Positions 8,271 through 13,699 of a stretch of DNA of 64,000 bases are shown piece after piece. This DNA is from Anaeromyxobacteraceae bacterium. Its GTDB lineage: Bacteria > Myxococcota > Myxococcia > Myxococcales > Anaeromyxobacteraceae. Every line of letters starts with the position of its first letter. Position 1 is the first letter of the stretch. The DNA lies in the NCBI GenBank assembly GCA_047602405.1, contig JASGHJ010000001.1:1181228-1245227 (forward strand). Direction: 5' to 3'. The notes under the pieces were generated by a model that saw nothing but the letters and a program-made list of their open reading frames with translations, had not been told where the DNA came from and searched no databases. The position numbers and the translations under genes are program-made.

Positions 8271-9686
8271 CTACCCGTCGCGCCGCTTCTCCATCTCCGC
8301 GAAGTACGTCGTCGTCTTCATGAAGACGAGCGGGATGGTGCCGACCGGGCCCTGGCGCTGCTTCGCGACGATGAGCTGGACCTCCTGGGTCTCGCTCTGC
8401 TGCTGGGGCTGGCCGTCCTTCGACTCCTCCTCCTGGCGGTGGAGGAACATGACGACGTCGGCGTCCTGCTCGATGGCGCCCGACTCGCGGAGGTCGGAGA
8501 GCATCGGCGGCTCGCCCTTGCGCTTCTCGACGCCTCGGTTGAGCTGCGAGAGCGCGATGATCGGGCACTCGAGCTCCTTCGCGAGCCCCTTCAGGGAGCG
8601 CGAGATGGTCGCGATCTCCTGCTCGCGCGACTGGTTCTGCCGGTCGGAGGGCGCGTGCATGAGCTGGAGGTAGTCGATGCAGACGAGGTCGAGGCCGCCG
8701 TTCTCGCGCTTGAGCTTGCGGCACTTCGAGCGGAGCTCGACCGGGGTGAGCACGAAGTTGTCGTCGAGCCACATGCTCGCCCCGCCGACCTTGTCGGCGT
8801 GGGTCGCGATCTTCTGCCAGTCGTAGGTCGAGAGCTGGCCGGCCGAGAGCCGCCGCCAGTCGAGCTTCGCCTCGGACGCGAGCATGCGGAGCGCGAGCTG
8901 GTCGGACGGCATCTCCAGCGAGAAGAACGCGACCTTCTTCCCGTGCTTCGTGGCCGCGTGGGTCGCGATGTTGAGCGCGAAGGCGGTCTTGCCGACCGAG
9001 GGGCGGGCGGCGAGCACGATGAGCGCGCCGGGCTGCAGCCCGAGCGTGTTCTTGTCGAGCGTCGGGATGCCGGTCGGGACGCCGGTGATCGGCGAGAGGC
9101 CCGACTGCACCCGCTTCTGGACGGCCTCGAGGTTCTCGAGGGCCTTCATCACCGGCTCGGAGATCTTCCGCAGCGTCTCGGACGAGCTGCCCTGGCCGGC
9201 GCTGAAGACCTCCTGCTGGGACGAGTCCAGGTAGTGCTGGACGTTGGTGCCCGACTCGTAGCCCCGCTCCACCACCTGCTGGGCGGTGAGCATCATCTTG
9301 CGGAGCTGCGAGAGCTCGCGCACCGTCCGGGCGTAGTGGCGGATGTTGGCGGTCGTGCCGATGGCGCGGGCGAGCGAGAGCGGCAGCTCGCGCGGGACCG
9401 CCCCGCCGAGGAGCCCCTTCGCGTCGAGCCGCTGCTGCACCAGGATCGGATCGATCGCCTTCGACTCCTTGGCGAGCTCCTCGCACACCGAGTAAACGTG
9501 CTGGTGCGCCATCAGGTAGAAGTCGCCCGAGCGCAGCTCGGCCGCCACCTGGTCGAACGCGGTCTCCTCGGTCAGGATCGCGCCGAGCACGGCCTGCTCG
9601 GCGTCGACGCTGTGGGGGAGATCCCGGCCGGTCCGGAGGGAAACGGGCGCTTCTGGCGCGCGGCGGGCGGGGTCCTGATCGGCCAT
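8271..9686 (-). CDS. dnaB: Replicative DNA helicase
   Basis: PHSVDAEQAVLG, Walker A AARPSVGKT, FSLEM, IDYLQL, SQLNR, SDLRESGAIEQDAD, KQRQGP; no intein. Confidence 0.97.
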   Translation of the reverse strand: MADQDPARRAPEAPVSLRTGRDLPHSVDAEQAVLGAILTEETAFDQVAAELRSGDFYLMAHQHVYSVCEELAKESKAIDPILVQQRLDAKGLLGGAVPRELPLSLARAIGTTANIRHYARTVRELSQLRKMMLTAQQVVERGYESGTNVQHYLDSSQQEVFSAGQGSSSETLRKISEPVMKALENLEAVQKRVQSGLSPITGVPTGIPTLDKNTLGLQPGALIVLAARPSVGKTAFALNIATHAATKHGKKVAFFSLEMPSDQLALRMLASEAKLDWRRLSAGQLSTYDWQKIATHADKVGGASMWLDDNFVLTPVELRSKCRKLKRENGGLDLVCIDYLQLMHAPSDRQNQSREQEIATISRSLKGLAKELECPIIALSQLNRGVEKRKGEPPMLSDLRESGAIEQDADVVMFLHRQEEESKDGQPQQQSETQEVQLIVAKQRQGPVGTIPLVFMKTTTYFAEMEKRRDG

Positions 9687-9726
9687 CGGAGCGCGGCAGA
9701 CTAGCAGCCGGATCCGACGGGGACAC

Positions 9727-9879
9727 CGTGGATGTGCCGTGGACAAGCCGGGGAAAAGCTGGGGAAAACGCGGGGGATTACCGGGTGGATGGGCCGTGGA
9801 GCGGACGTGGAAAGCCTGTGGACGGTTCGGCGGGGCTCACCCGCCGGTGTGAGGGGGTTCTTGCGGTTCGGGTGGAGAA
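9727..9879 (+). promoter_or_regulatory. Array of DnaA-box-like 9-mers phased at 11 bp
   Basis: Starts at 9727, 9738, 9749, 9760, 9771 and 9784, 9795, 9806, 9817, plus 9871; cores GTGGA/GGGGA; CGTGGACAA is one mismatch from TGTGGACAA. Confidence 0.55.
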
Positions 9880-9967
9880 CCCACCGGGAAACGGGCGAAA
9901 CTTGCCCGGCCCGGACGGCTCGCGTGCCCATCACGTCGAAGCCACTTCGAGCCTCCGGAGCCCGCGC

Positions 9968-12799
9968 ATGACCCGCCTCGCCCGCGCCACCGCCGCCCTC
10001 TCCCTCCTCGCCCTCGCCGCGTGTGGGTCGTCCTCGTCCGGCACCGGCCACCGCATCGGCGACGAGACCTTCGTCTCCTCGCCCCCGGGCGGCGGCAGCC
10101 GCGACGGGCCGGTCGGCGCCGGGGACGGCGCGGCCGGATCGCCGAGCGCGTCGCCGGCGCCGCCGACGACCGACGGGAAGGGCACCGCGGCGGCCGACCG
10201 CGCCATCGAGGAGTCGGACCTCTACGCGCGGAGCGGCGCGACGCTGCTCGTCCAGAACATGTGGCGCGGCCTGCAGCTCGTCGACCTCGCGGATCCGTCG
10301 CACCCGAGGCTCACCGGGCGGCTCCCGCTCCGCGGCACGCCCGCGGGCCTCTACCTCCGCGGCACGACCGCCATCGTCCTCGCGCGCGATCACCTCGCCT
10401 GGTCGCTCGTCGACGACGTGGCGGTGCCGGAGGTGACCTCGCTCCTCTGGACCGTCGACGTCTCGAACCCCGCCGCGCCGAAGATCCTCTCCGAGACCCG
10501 GCTCGACGGGCAGGTGCAGGACTCGCGCCTCGTCGGCGACGCGCTCTACCTCTTCACCGGCGGCCTCTCGTGGTGGGGCATCGGCCCGGTCGCGGCCGCC
10601 GCGCGCGCGCCCGGCGGCGCGGGGGCGGCGGACGTCGCGCCGGCGTCGGGTGACTACGGCGTCTCGTCCTACGACCTCTCCGACCTCGCCGCGCCCAGGA
10701 AGGTGGACGCGATCGACTTCCCGACCGCGGCGTGGGGCTGGGACCTGCACGCGCACGTGGCCGACGGGCGGATCACCATCGCCGCGCCCGGCTGGGACAC
10801 GGTCGGGCCGCGCACGAAGCTCGTCGCCGTCGACGCGAGCGATCCCGCCGGCACGCTCGCGCTCGGCGCCGCCGTCACGCTGCGCGGCACCGTGCAGGAC
10901 CGCTGGGCGATGGACCTCGACGCCGCGGGCGGCACGTTCCGGGTGGTCACCGCCGACGGGTGGAACCTCGGCGCGACGCTCACGGTCCTGAAGTGGGCCA
11001 CGCCCGGCACGGTCGCGCCGCTCTCGCACCTCCACGTCGACGTCCCCGAGACGCTCACCGCGGCGGCCTTCGAGGGCGCGCGCGGCTACCTCGTCACCTC
11101 CGTGCGCGTCGACCCGCTCTGGGTGGTCGACCTCTCCGACCCGGCGAAGCCCGCGGTCACCGGCGAGCTCGCGATGCCCGGGCAGCTCGACTTCCTGCGC
11201 CCGCGCGGCGACCGCCTGCTCGCGCTCGGCCACACCGCCGAGGCCGGCAAGGCCTTCCAGCTCCACGTCTCGCTCCTCGACGTCGCCGACCCCGCGAAGC
11301 CCGCGCTCCTCGTGCGCCGCACGTTCGGGCCGGACTGGGGCTGGGTGCCCGCCTCCGCCGACGACCTGCACAAGGCGTTCGTCGTCGCCGGCGACCTCGT
11401 GATCGTGCCGTTCGAGGGCTGGGACCAGGCGGCCGGCGGCTGGGCCGGCGGCACGCAGCTCCTCACGCTCCAGGGCGACGCCCTCACCCTCGGCGGCTTC
11501 GTCGCGCACGCGGGCGACATCCAGCGCGCGTTCCCGTTCGGCGCGCAGGCGCCCGGCGTCCTCGCCGCGTTCTCGAACGCGAAGCTGCAGACGCTCGACG
11601 CGACCGACCGCGCGAAGCCCGTCGAGCTCGCCTCGATCGACCTCGCGCGCGAGGTGACCTCCGTCGCGGTCGTCGGCGGCGCCGCGGCCGAGCTGAGCGG
11701 CGAGGCCTGGCGCGGCACGGGCGAGCTCGTCGTGGCGCCGGCCGCCGACCCCGACGCGCCGGTGCCCACCGCGAGGTTCGCGGTCGACTCCGCGTGGGGG
11801 AGGCTTTTCCGCGACGGCACGGTCGTGTGGACGTTCGGCAACGACTGGCGGACCGGCACCACGGTGCTCGAGGGTTTCGACCTCGCGGACGCGGCGAAGC
11901 CGGTGCGCCGCGGGAAGCTCACGGTGCCCGCGCCGGCCTCGGGCGGCTGGTGGTGGGTCGGCGACGCCGTGAAGGTGGGCCGCGCGCTCGTCGCGACCCA
12001 GTCGACCTGGACCTGCGAGGCCGTCAAGGGCTGCGAGTCGCACACCCAGCTCCTCGTGCTCGGCCTCGCGAACCCGGACGCGCCCGCGGTGGTCGCGACC
12101 GTCGAGCTGCCCTCGAAGGCGTGGACGGGCGCGCTGCGCGCCGTCGGCACCGACCTCTGGTACACGCAGTACGCCTGGGAGGGCGACAGCGCGGTCCGCT
12201 ACTTCGTCGGGAAGATCGGGCTCGCGAACCCGGCGAAGCCGGTGCAGGGCGCGCCGGTGAACGTGCCGGGCGAGTTCTACTCGGCCTCCGACGACGGCGG
12301 CACGATCTACACGACCGAGATCGAGTGGCCCGCGGCGCCGTTCGCGGGCGCGACCCAGCCGCGGACGCGCTTCCACACGCTCGCGCTGACCTCGCGGGGC
12401 ACGGCCCGGCTCGTCGGCACCGTCGAGGCCGGTGGGTACTTCTGGGGCGCGGTGCGGTCCGGGCCGCGCGCGTTCGCGGCGGGGACGGTCTGGTCCGGCT
12501 CCGGCGCTTCCACCACCTCGCGCGGCGCGGTCGTCACGGTGGACCTCGAGCGCCTGCGGGTCGCGAACGTGCTCGGCACCGACGCCTCGTGGCCGCAGGT
12601 CCTCGCGGCCGAGGGCGGGAAGCTCTTCGTCGCGGAGTACTGGCCGCTCGCGGCGATCGAGGTGTACGGCCTCGGCACCGGGAAGCCCGTGTTCGAGCAG
12701 GCGGTGCCCACGTTCGGCTGGATTTGGCAGGTGGTCGTGGAGGGCGGCGTCGCCTACCTCCCGTCGGGACCGTACGGCGTGGTGCGGATCCCGCTGTAG
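9968..12799 (+). CDS. Beta-propeller domain lipoprotein
   Basis: Lipobox LAACG; IEESDLY, RVDPLWVVDLSDP, GELAMPG, VSLLDVADP motifs typical of the secreted beta-propeller family. Confidence 0.8.
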   Translation: MTRLARATAALSLLALAACGSSSSGTGHRIGDETFVSSPPGGGSRDGPVGAGDGAAGSPSASPAPPTTDGKGTAAADRAIEESDLYARSGATLLVQNMWRGLQLVDLADPSHPRLTGRLPLRGTPAGLYLRGTTAIVLARDHLAWSLVDDVAVPEVTSLLWTVDVSNPAAPKILSETRLDGQVQDSRLVGDALYLFTGGLSWWGIGPVAAAARAPGGAGAADVAPASGDYGVSSYDLSDLAAPRKVDAIDFPTAAWGWDLHAHVADGRITIAAPGWDTVGPRTKLVAVDASDPAGTLALGAAVTLRGTVQDRWAMDLDAAGGTFRVVTADGWNLGATLTVLKWATPGTVAPLSHLHVDVPETLTAAAFEGARGYLVTSVRVDPLWVVDLSDPAKPAVTGELAMPGQLDFLRPRGDRLLALGHTAEAGKAFQLHVSLLDVADPAKPALLVRRTFGPDWGWVPASADDLHKAFVVAGDLVIVPFEGWDQAAGGWAGGTQLLTLQGDALTLGGFVAHAGDIQRAFPFGAQAPGVLAAFSNAKLQTLDATDRAKPVELASIDLAREVTSVAVVGGAAAELSGEAWRGTGELVVAPAADPDAPVPTARFAVDSAWGRLFRDGTVVWTFGNDWRTGTTVLEGFDLADAAKPVRRGKLTVPAPASGGWWWVGDAVKVGRALVATQSTWTCEAVKGCESHTQLLVLGLANPDAPAVVATVELPSKAWTGALRAVGTDLWYTQYAWEGDSAVRYFVGKIGLANPAKPVQGAPVNVPGEFYSASDDGGTIYTTEIEWPAAPFAGATQPRTRFHTLALTSRGTARLVGTVEAGGYFWGAVRSGPRAFAAGTVWSGSGASTTSRGAVVTVDLERLRVANVLGTDASWPQVLAAEGGKLFVAEYWPLAAIEVYGLGTGKPVFEQAVPTFGWIWQVVVEGGVAYLPSGPYGVVRIPL

Positions 12800-12850: not shown

Positions 12851-13699
12851 ATGCGCACCGCCCCCATCCGCCTCGCCGCCGCCGCCCTCGCCCTCGCCGC
12901 CCTGGCCGGGTGCGCGGGCCTGAAGGACCTCGCCGCCGCCGCGTTCACGAAGCCGAAGCTCGACTTCAAGGGCGCCGTCGTCGAGGGGCTCGACCTCGAG
13001 GGCGCGACCATCGGCCTGCAGGTCGACCTCACGAACCCGAACGGCTTCGGCCTCGACGTCGCGCGCGTCGGCTGGTCGCTCGACGCCGAGAACACCCGCG
13101 TCGCGACCGGCGACATGCCCGGCGGGCTCACCATCCCCGCGAAGGGCACCGCGCCGCTCACCATCCCCGTGCGCCTGCGCTGGAAGGACGTGCCGGGCAT
13201 CGTGAACCTCTTCGGCTCCCGGCACGCCGATGGGCTCGGCTACAAGGCCGCGGCGACCGTGGGCGTGAACACGCCGATCGGCGTCGTCGAGCTGCCCGTG
13301 TCGCACGCGGGCACCGTGAAGCTCCCGTCGCTGCCGGCGTTCTCCATCCAGGGCGTCTCCGTGAAGGGCGTCTCGCTCTCCGACGTGACCTTCGACGTGA
13401 AGGTCGGCGTGAAGAACCCGAACATGTTCTCGATCCCGGCCGGGAAGCTCGGCTGGTCGCTCGCGCTCGGCGGCGGCGCCCCGGTCGCGCGCGCCGAGAA
13501 CGCGCCGCTCAAGGGCGTGGCCGCGGGCCAGACGGGGACCATCGACATCCCGCTCAAGCTCGACTTCCGTTCGGCGGGGCGCGCGGCGATGGACGTCGCG
13601 AAGGGCGGCGACGTGCGCGTGCAGATGAAGGGGACGGCCGACGTCGCGGGGCTGCCGATCCCGCTCGACCTCGACACGACGGTGCCCGCGCGGAGGTAG
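12851..13699 (+). CDS. LEA type 2 (WHy) tandem-domain lipoprotein
   Basis: Lipobox LAGC; two NPN motifs (LTNPNGF, VKNPNMF) in beta-rich repeats. Confidence 0.85.
   Translation: MRTAPIRLAAAALALAALAGCAGLKDLAAAAFTKPKLDFKGAVVEGLDLEGATIGLQVDLTNPNGFGLDVARVGWSLDAENTRVATGDMPGGLTIPAKGTAPLTIPVRLRWKDVPGIVNLFGSRHADGLGYKAAATVGVNTPIGVVELPVSHAGTVKLPSLPAFSIQGVSVKGVSLSDVTFDVKVGVKNPNMFSIPAGKLGWSLALGGGAPVARAENAPLKGVAAGQTGTIDIPLKLDFRSAGRAAMDVAKGGDVRVQMKGTADVAGLPIPLDLDTTVPARR

Follow-up and report, generated by a model that had tools for sequence, protein, structure and literature searches.

An 11-bp-phased array of DnaA-box-like sites upstream of dnaB in Anaeromyxobacter: a candidate DnaA-oligomerisation region at a helicase promoter

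Introduction

The closest described counterparts of the element reported here are the dnaB regions of mycobacteria and Caulobacter. In Mycobacterium tuberculosis, DnaA was found to bind the region upstream of dnaB ('Rv0057, upstream of dnaB') in vitro as one of its five top sites; ChIP-seq in M. smegmatis was aimed at confirming these sites in vivo (Hicks et al. 2020, PMC7738170). The I282T variant of M. tuberculosis DnaA was associated with weaker binding upstream of dnaB and with the under-expression of dnaB (PMC7738170). The dnaB gene of Caulobacter crescentus is DnaA-dependent as well, according to the statement in PMC7738170 that cites Hottes et al. 2005 and in which the authors state agreement.

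At the replication origin of E. coli, DnaA sites are arranged in two rows, R5M-tau2-I1-I2 and C3-C2-I3-C1, each with a better box beside weak ones of the same orientation and with gaps of 2 (or 3) bp. Such arrays of low-affinity DnaA sites at the E. coli oriC were reportedly the subject of work by Rozgaja et al. in 2011. They are also described in PMC4285127, together with the Caulobacter W-box, TCCCCA, which is the reverse complement of TGGGGA. Paired boxes are bound by E. coli DnaA at a spacing of 2 or 3 bp (the 'double DnaA box' rule), and one extra base between them abolishes the binding (PMC11317965).

Clusters of DnaA boxes occur also outside oriC, in the origin-proximal part of the chromosome, as in B. 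subtilis and at the E. coli datA locus, in which the boxes are dispersed. Both datA and DARS2 require IHF. Direct repeats with a period of 10-11 bp are bound by winged-helix regulators, among which those of the OmpR/PhoB type often have them at their own gene, and by ParR; MraZ operators consist of GTGG-type repeats with steps of about 10 bp and are located upstream of mraZ/dcw; in the parC region of plasmid R1, two sets of five 11-bp iterons are located around the parMR promoter, and ParR is the protein that binds them. Here, we describe an array of DnaA-box-like units upstream of dnaB in Anaeromyxobacter and compare it with these systems. A literature search found no study of Anaeromyxobacter DnaA or oriC.

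Results

The array upstream of dnaB

The window, which is the whole analysed stretch of 64,000 nucleotides (G+C content of 75%), contains a 281-bp spacer between dnaB and a divergently transcribed lipoprotein gene with a Beta_propel domain. Nine units of the form N-G(T/G)GGA-NNN, all in one orientation, occupy positions 9727-9825 of this spacer (Table 1). At 41 nt upstream of the start codon of dnaB (ATG at 9686, minus strand), the array begins at C1:1,190,954 of the assembly, and its core-to-core steps, as measured by the G(T/G)GGA core, are 11, 11, 11, 12, 12, 11, 11 and 11 bp. When compared with the 9-mer DnaA box (TGTGGAT/CAA), one unit matches at 8/9 positions, two at 7/9 and six at 5-7/9, and the G(T/G)GGA core is kept by all of them. 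Judged from its sequence, unit 2 is likely to be the anchor site of the array.

The sequence-only reading of the window had listed ten 9-mers with a single orientation, starting about 40 nt from the dnaB start. All ten are present, and all array units do read as TGTGGA-type on the plus strand. Its description of exact 11-bp steps holds for most of the array; the fifth unit, however, is GGGGGATTA at 9772 and not at 9771, which gives two 12-bp steps. The tenth 9-mer, at 9871, which had been taken as a member of the array, lies 54 bp from the ninth unit, a distance that no combination of 11- and 12-bp steps can give. Because this site is out of phase, is placed inside an inverted repeat and is found only in the present genome and its near-identical twin (G010), it was not counted, and it is probably outside the array element. 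The segment in which it lies (9826-9968, plus strand) is rich in hairpins (GGCGGGgctcaCCCGCC, GGGTGGagaaCCCACC, CGGGCgaaacttGCCCG) and, on the plus strand, folds better than shuffled sequences (z -2.6). This segment seems to be confined to the present genome and G010, in which the 2.8-kb lipoprotein gene is inserted.

Table 1. Features of the dnaB upstream region, with positions in the window.
Feature	Position	Strand	Description
dnaB	8271..9686	-	471 aa, ATG at 9686; Pfam DnaB N- and C-terminal domains
Putative extended -10 element of dnaB	9698..9706	-	TGcTAGTCT; genus consensus TGnTAGnnT; about 12 nt from ATG
Unit 1	9727..9735	+	CGTGGATGT, weak; most relatives have GTCGATGT; adjoins the putative -35 zone
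Unit 2	9738..9746	+	CGTGGACAA, 8/9 to TGTGGACAA; best-conserved unit; GTGGATAA or GTGGACAA in relatives
Unit 3	9749..9757	+	CGGGGAAAA, core near the W-box complement TGGGGA; CCGAAAT-type in relatives
Unit 4	9760..9768	+	TGGGGAAAA; the Caulobacter W-box TCCCCA reads TGGGGA on the opposite strand
Unit 5	9772..9780	+	GGGGGATTA, extra 12-bp unit, in G010 and the present genome only; 12-bp steps on both sides
Unit 6	9784..9792	+	GGTGGATGG
Unit 7	9795..9803	+	CGTGGAGCG
Unit 8	9806..9814	+	CGTGGAAAG
Unit 9	9817..9825	+	TGTGGACGG, 7/9 to TGTGGACAA; the unit farthest from dnaB
Isolated site	9871..9879	+	GGTGGAGAA; out of phase; within the inverted repeat GGGTGGagaaCCCACC; only in the present genome and its near twin G010
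Divergent lipoprotein gene	9968..12799	+	Beta_propel domain; inserted in the present genome and G010

The gene dnaB and its putative promoter

The dnaB gene is the sole replicative helicase gene of the genome (a single match), and the start of its product at the ATG in 9686, MADQDPARR, fits the genus-wide MA(E/D)xDPARR. Between the array and this ATG, the most conserved block in the 23 aligned species is TGnTAGnnT, which we regard, from its sequence, as the putative dnaB promoter. A -35 element is not recognisable, and a scan of 9500-10100 for terminators and for the sigma-70 consensus, with both -35 and -10 required, returned no match. Across species, the array keeps a fixed distance to both the ATG and the TGnTAGnnT block, and the opposite flank is variable. 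There, most relatives have a small lipoprotein gene, resembling the LEA_2 gene at 12851, instead of the Beta_propel gene. As the flank distal to dnaB shows no conservation and the neighbour gene differs, the array is tied to dnaB and not to the divergent lipoprotein gene.

The mechanically defined dnaB open reading frame starts further upstream, from a TTG at 9746 (491 aa), which is not conserved. This extension (window 9687-9746, minus strand) takes in the putative promoter and two units of the array. Gene callers may thus mis-start dnaB, with a long TTG-start frame covering the presumed regulatory element, which should be kept in mind in annotation.

Conservation of the array in the genus

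The array was recognisable, with 2-8 units and at the same distance from dnaB, in 30 out of 30 other Anaeromyxobacter genomes inspected (24 genomes compared first and six more). DnaB proteins of the 24 relatives are 75-83% identical to that of the present genome, except for the near-identical twin G010. Most of these 24 have 4-7 exact cores plus weaker units, and two loci (L015 and L016) keep 2-3 only. The pattern typical of the genus consists of 4+4 units at 11-bp steps with a single 12-bp step in the middle of the array. The present genome and G010 have one additional 12-bp unit, which is the sole length change inside the array in comparison with the other genomes. Together with other indels, the gain of this 12-bp unit breaks every reading frame.

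The per-column information content, calculated for 23 species, peaks at the 11-bp period, with the cores kept and the spacers drifting. Clearly, the array is under 11-bp-periodic selection. Conservation upstream of dnaB in relatives, which had been suggested earlier as a check, is thus seen both for the array itself and for its phasing. In one clade (G006, G011, G016 and G019) the dnaB array has decayed. The array is absent from five dnaB upstream regions representing other families of the order (L033-L037), and hence it is specific to the genus or family.

Uniqueness of the array in the genome

When both strands of the 6.16-Mb genome are considered, only the two halves of the array have three or more G(T/G)GGA cores in a row with 11-bp steps, and steps of 9, 10, 12 and 13 bp gave only a few short runs of cores. 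Approximately 4e-4 runs of four would be expected per genome by chance. Moreover, of 37 genomes examined within the genus, 28 contain the strict pattern GTGGA-N6-GTGGA-N6-GTGGA, and none contains the reversed pattern that was used as a control. The uniqueness of the array in the genome, the low number of runs of four expected and the empty reversed control rule out that the array is a product of chance.

With a strict scan for DnaA boxes (at most one mismatch), two boxes within 500 bp were found only in the dnaA-dnaN spacer; the dnaB array was missed because its boxes are weak. Other places dense in GTGGA that emerged from density scans were rejected, as they represent coding sequence or an unrelated palindromic tandem repeat of 75 bp. 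The latter, at C1:1,340,266-1,340,560 of the present genome (G000), has units of about 75 bp, each with the palindrome GTGGAGCGAAGCTCCAC, and looks like a REP-type element.

The replication origin

A chromosomal origin is expected at a switch of gene orientation or strand asymmetry, usually next to dnaA/dnaN. The origin could not be placed by GC skew, which is too weak both in the window, in which it shows no switch, and in the whole genome; cumulative gene orientation was therefore used. The global minimum of the latter, based on 1,086 high-GC3 open reading frames on C1, is at C1:1,059,922, beside dnaA (C1:1,061,7xx-1,063,240). The start of dnaN is at 1,063,634, and this region is about 127 kb away from the array. 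The sequence-only reading had considered oriC less likely at dnaB, and the orientation switch by dnaA, at such a distance, bears this out. The lack of an AT-rich unwinding element, on which that opinion was partly based, was confirmed for 9687-9968, in which neither an AT-rich nor a DnaA-trio-like segment is present.

The dnaA-dnaN spacer (C1:1,063,243-1,063,633) holds the only pair of perfect TGTGGACAA boxes in the genome, and perfect boxes occur in it in both orientations. In 23 out of 23 aligned genomes, this spacer contains the co-oriented cores TGTGGA-N5-GTGGAtc ... TGGGGA-N5-GTGGG at offsets 0, 11, (22), 34 and 45; the steps are of 11 bp except for a single one of 12 bp, a spacing like that of the dnaB array. 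After the cores, the same 23 genomes have a promoter-like pair TTGACA-N18-TACACA and then TTTTCCACA in reverse orientation; a GC cluster comes next, and a stretch rich in A and G closes the spacer at the dnaN ATG. The dnaA-dnaN spacer is probably the oriC of Anaeromyxobacter, and the order of its elements provides a testable map of this origin. In the present genome (L001/L038), it has also GGATCC motifs, a CCCCTGCT cluster, and a AAGAAGAGGATC stretch just before the dnaN ATG. An array of comparable kind was not found in the rpmH-dnaA spacer, which contains the dnaA promoter.

The candidate binding protein

A matrix derived from the dnaB arrays of other species only, summed over four phased sites and applied to both strands of the genome, gave its highest score to the dnaB array (41.3) and the next to oriC (24.7), although the lead of oriC over the third place (24.2) is narrow. 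The flanks of the units differ from the flanks of GTGGA genome-wide: T at position 1 is found in 29% vs. 6%, T or A at position 7 in 63% vs. 24%, and A at position 8 in 42% vs. 7%, with p-values that ignore shared ancestry. The enriched bases are those of the consensus TGTGGAT/AAA, and position 9 prefers G over the consensus A. The spacers of 2-3 bp between the boxes agree with the spacing rule of E. coli DnaA, and TGGGGA occurs in units 3-4 as well as at oriC.

Of the six residues through which E. coli DnaA contacts the bases, R399, D433, H434 and T435 are kept and two are changed (P423Q and H439S), according to the alignment of DnaA domain IV to 1J1V. The changes are encoded at the 3' end of dnaA, at about C1:1,062,950-1,063,240. 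The looser sequence of the arrays at the first and last positions of the boxes may be connected with these two substitutions, and, as far as the sequence can tell, the specificity of DnaA in Anaeromyxobacter may differ from that in E. coli.

From these similarities we infer that DnaA is the protein that binds the array. The proposal of DnaA in the sequence-only reading is strengthened by the same cores and steps at oriC, the bias of the flanks, the 2-3-bp spacers, the mycobacterial precedent and the ranks obtained with the matrix. The last also answer the comparison with the genome background that had been proposed with it, as the dnaB array comes first and oriC second.

Discussion

A proposed DnaA-oligomerisation region at the dnaB promoter

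Taken together, the data are best explained by a role of the array as a DnaA-oligomerisation region within the dnaB promoter, to which we assign a probability of roughly 0.65. DnaA, probably in its ATP form, would nucleate at the best box, unit 2, and, when the level of DnaA-ATP is high, would spread cooperatively over the eight weaker co-oriented boxes, which are 2-3 bp apart. Such a filament would, at its proximal end, border on the -35 zone of an extended -10 promoter that lacks a recognisable -35, and the occupancy of the array would set dnaB transcription by the level of active initiator. By analogy with the described systems, the most likely role of this arrangement would be to link helicase supply to initiator status. 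Being located about 127 kb from oriC, the locus would be copied soon after initiation, and it may also soak up DnaA.

The activation of dnaB through the array seems more likely than repression, in view of the analogy with M. tuberculosis and the activator-dependent look of the promoter. The fixed distance to the conserved -10 element makes us favour promoter control over titration as the presumed function. What counts against the proposed mechanism is that most units match the consensus mainly in the five-base core. The preference for G at position 9, the two substituted base-contacting residues, the narrow lead of oriC in the matrix ranking and the lack of an array of this kind in the rpmH-dnaA spacer speak against it as well. 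Additionally, the boxes are directed with TCCAC toward the gene at dnaB, but with GTGGA toward the gene at dnaN and at the receiver genes described below; thus, one simple activation geometry cannot explain all these sites. Beyond the existence of the array and the selection acting on it, the mechanism is what we infer: that DnaA binds the array, that the conserved block serves as the promoter, and in which direction dnaB is regulated.

Alternative explanations

DnaA could also bind the array mainly for the sake of controlling the initiator itself, with the array serving as a datA-like sink, a site of DnaA-ATP inactivation, or a cluster of the B. subtilis type about 100 kb from oriC, the placement of which would make it double soon after initiation. 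Nine contiguous sites are far above the need of known DnaA-regulated promoters, their architecture mirrors the oligomerisation region of oriC, and the locus is 92-126 kb from dnaN wherever both are in one long contig (51 kb on one draft contig). Despite that, we consider this unlikely as the main role, as in every species the array stays in a fixed position to the start of dnaB and to the -10-like block while its other flank is free, and as its decay in the clade of G006, G011, G016 and G019 would be odd for an essential timing device. Moreover, WATCAANNNNTTR, searched with at most one mismatch, has no match within 20 kb, although this IHF consensus is that of E. coli and may not apply here. 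The density of co-oriented DnaA-box-like sites beside a replication gene would fit an origin as well, either the true oriC or a second one. This is highly improbable given the orientation minimum at C1:1,059,922 beside dnaA-dnaN, the perfect boxes in both directions and the A/G-rich stretch after the GC cluster in the dnaA-dnaN spacer, and, at dnaB, the lack of an AT-rich or trio-like segment and of a GC-skew switch in the window.

The geometry of the repeats would suit also an entirely different protein that recognises 11-bp direct repeats, such as MraZ, a response regulator of the OmpR/PhoB type or a ParR/parC-like protein with a ribbon-helix-helix fold, in which case the likeness to DnaA boxes would be a partial coincidence or a sign of shared use. 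Most units indeed share only GTGGA with DnaA boxes, and similar arrays precede a response-regulator gene in about nine relatives. However, this response regulator is a stand-alone receiver of 120 aa without a DNA-binding domain, which argues against autoregulation, and there is no partition or regulator gene beside dnaB. MraZ, which had been named earlier as an alternative, fits poorly, as the GTGG repeats in the mraZ promoter of this genome, GTGGGAggaaGTGGCA, are at a 10-bp step, in contrast to the 11-12 bp of the array. With the recurrence of the motif and its spacing at oriC, the bias of the flanks toward the DnaA consensus and a perfect TGTGGACAA heading one of the receiver arrays, a binder other than DnaA is quite unlikely. 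The sequence GTGGGAggaaGTGGCA itself, at C2:3,679,261-3,679,276 of the present genome and about 35 bp upstream of mraZ, is likely the MraZ operator, with two GTGG repeats. As for non-functional repetitive DNA, slippage could produce a tandem repeat of 11/12 bp, and one unit was in fact gained here. Yet the cores are conserved while the spacers diverge, at DnaB identities down to 75%, and this leaves hardly any room for such an origin of the array. The same holds for a structured or translated sequence, since the array has no Rfam match and folds no better than shuffled sequences on either strand (z -0.3 and +1.1), and since the 12-bp and other indels break all frames.

Comparison with known systems

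An array for DnaA oligomerisation at dnaB would share with the dnaB regions of mycobacteria and Caulobacter the target gene and the position just upstream of it, and likely also the dependence of helicase supply on the initiator level. It differs from them in belonging to Myxococcota and in consisting of nine contiguous, strictly spaced and mostly weak boxes. Co-orientation, gaps of 2 (or 3) bp and a better box beside a weak row are features in common with the E. coli oriC arrays, and in both cases the arrangement suits a cooperative DnaA-ATP filament. Unlike those, the dnaB array is located off the origin and has no unwinding element, its half-arrays point in the same way and not toward each other, and it is longer, with 8-9 sites per run. 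With E. coli datA and the clusters of B. subtilis it has in common that DnaA-box-like sites are clustered off oriC in the origin-proximal part of the chromosome; in contrast to datA, which needs its IHF site, the array is contiguous, locked to the putative promoter and free of a site resembling the E. coli IHF consensus. The parC region of R1 is similar in having 11-bp direct repeats in two blocks adjoining a promoter, but parM and parR are absent here, and the motif of the array is DnaA-box-like and recurs at oriC.

The array alone leaves the current picture unchanged, as DnaA control of dnaB has already been documented in mycobacteria and Caulobacter. If our interpretation is correct, Myxococcota would join the lineages in which DnaA appears to govern the gene of the helicase that it later loads. 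The case is unusually clean, with nine boxes at origin-type spacing placed against a promoter, and the effect of DnaA-ATP filaments on RNA polymerase could be studied on it as a natural substrate. The points of interest are this clean origin-type geometry and a possible second target.

Arrays at other genes

In about nine species, 3-5 GTGGA units with 11/12-bp steps are located 130-185 bp upstream of a gene for a stand-alone receiver of about 120 aa with Response_reg as its only domain (L062-L067, L070, L077, L171 and L177, in G016, G019, G011, G006, G021, G013 twice, G001, G050 and G009). A perfect TGTGGACAA is the first unit in G013, where TCCACA in inverted orientation lies upstream of the array. 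The longest receiver arrays are found in the same clade in which the dnaB array decayed. The present genome lacks such a locus, and its receiver homologue (C2:344333-344665) has no array.

These loci allow for a bolder and rather doubtful idea, namely that an origin-type DnaA-ATP filament site outside the origin acts as a threshold switch in a small lineage-specific DnaA regulon, comprising the helicase gene and the CheY-like receiver gene of about nine species. If so, replication-initiation status would feed directly into two-component signalling, a tie comparable to that provided by Sda in B. subtilis. On this view, the filament may also help to melt the adjacent -35-less promoter, in a manner resembling its action on the unwinding element of an origin.

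Two further loci are found in the complete 5.28-Mb genome G023 (L069, C1 at about 3,081,880, and L068, C1 at about 1,224,256): a partial second copy of the dnaB promoter and array without dnaB, and a separate array of three units by the 3' end of a tRNA-like sequence, possibly in an integrated element.
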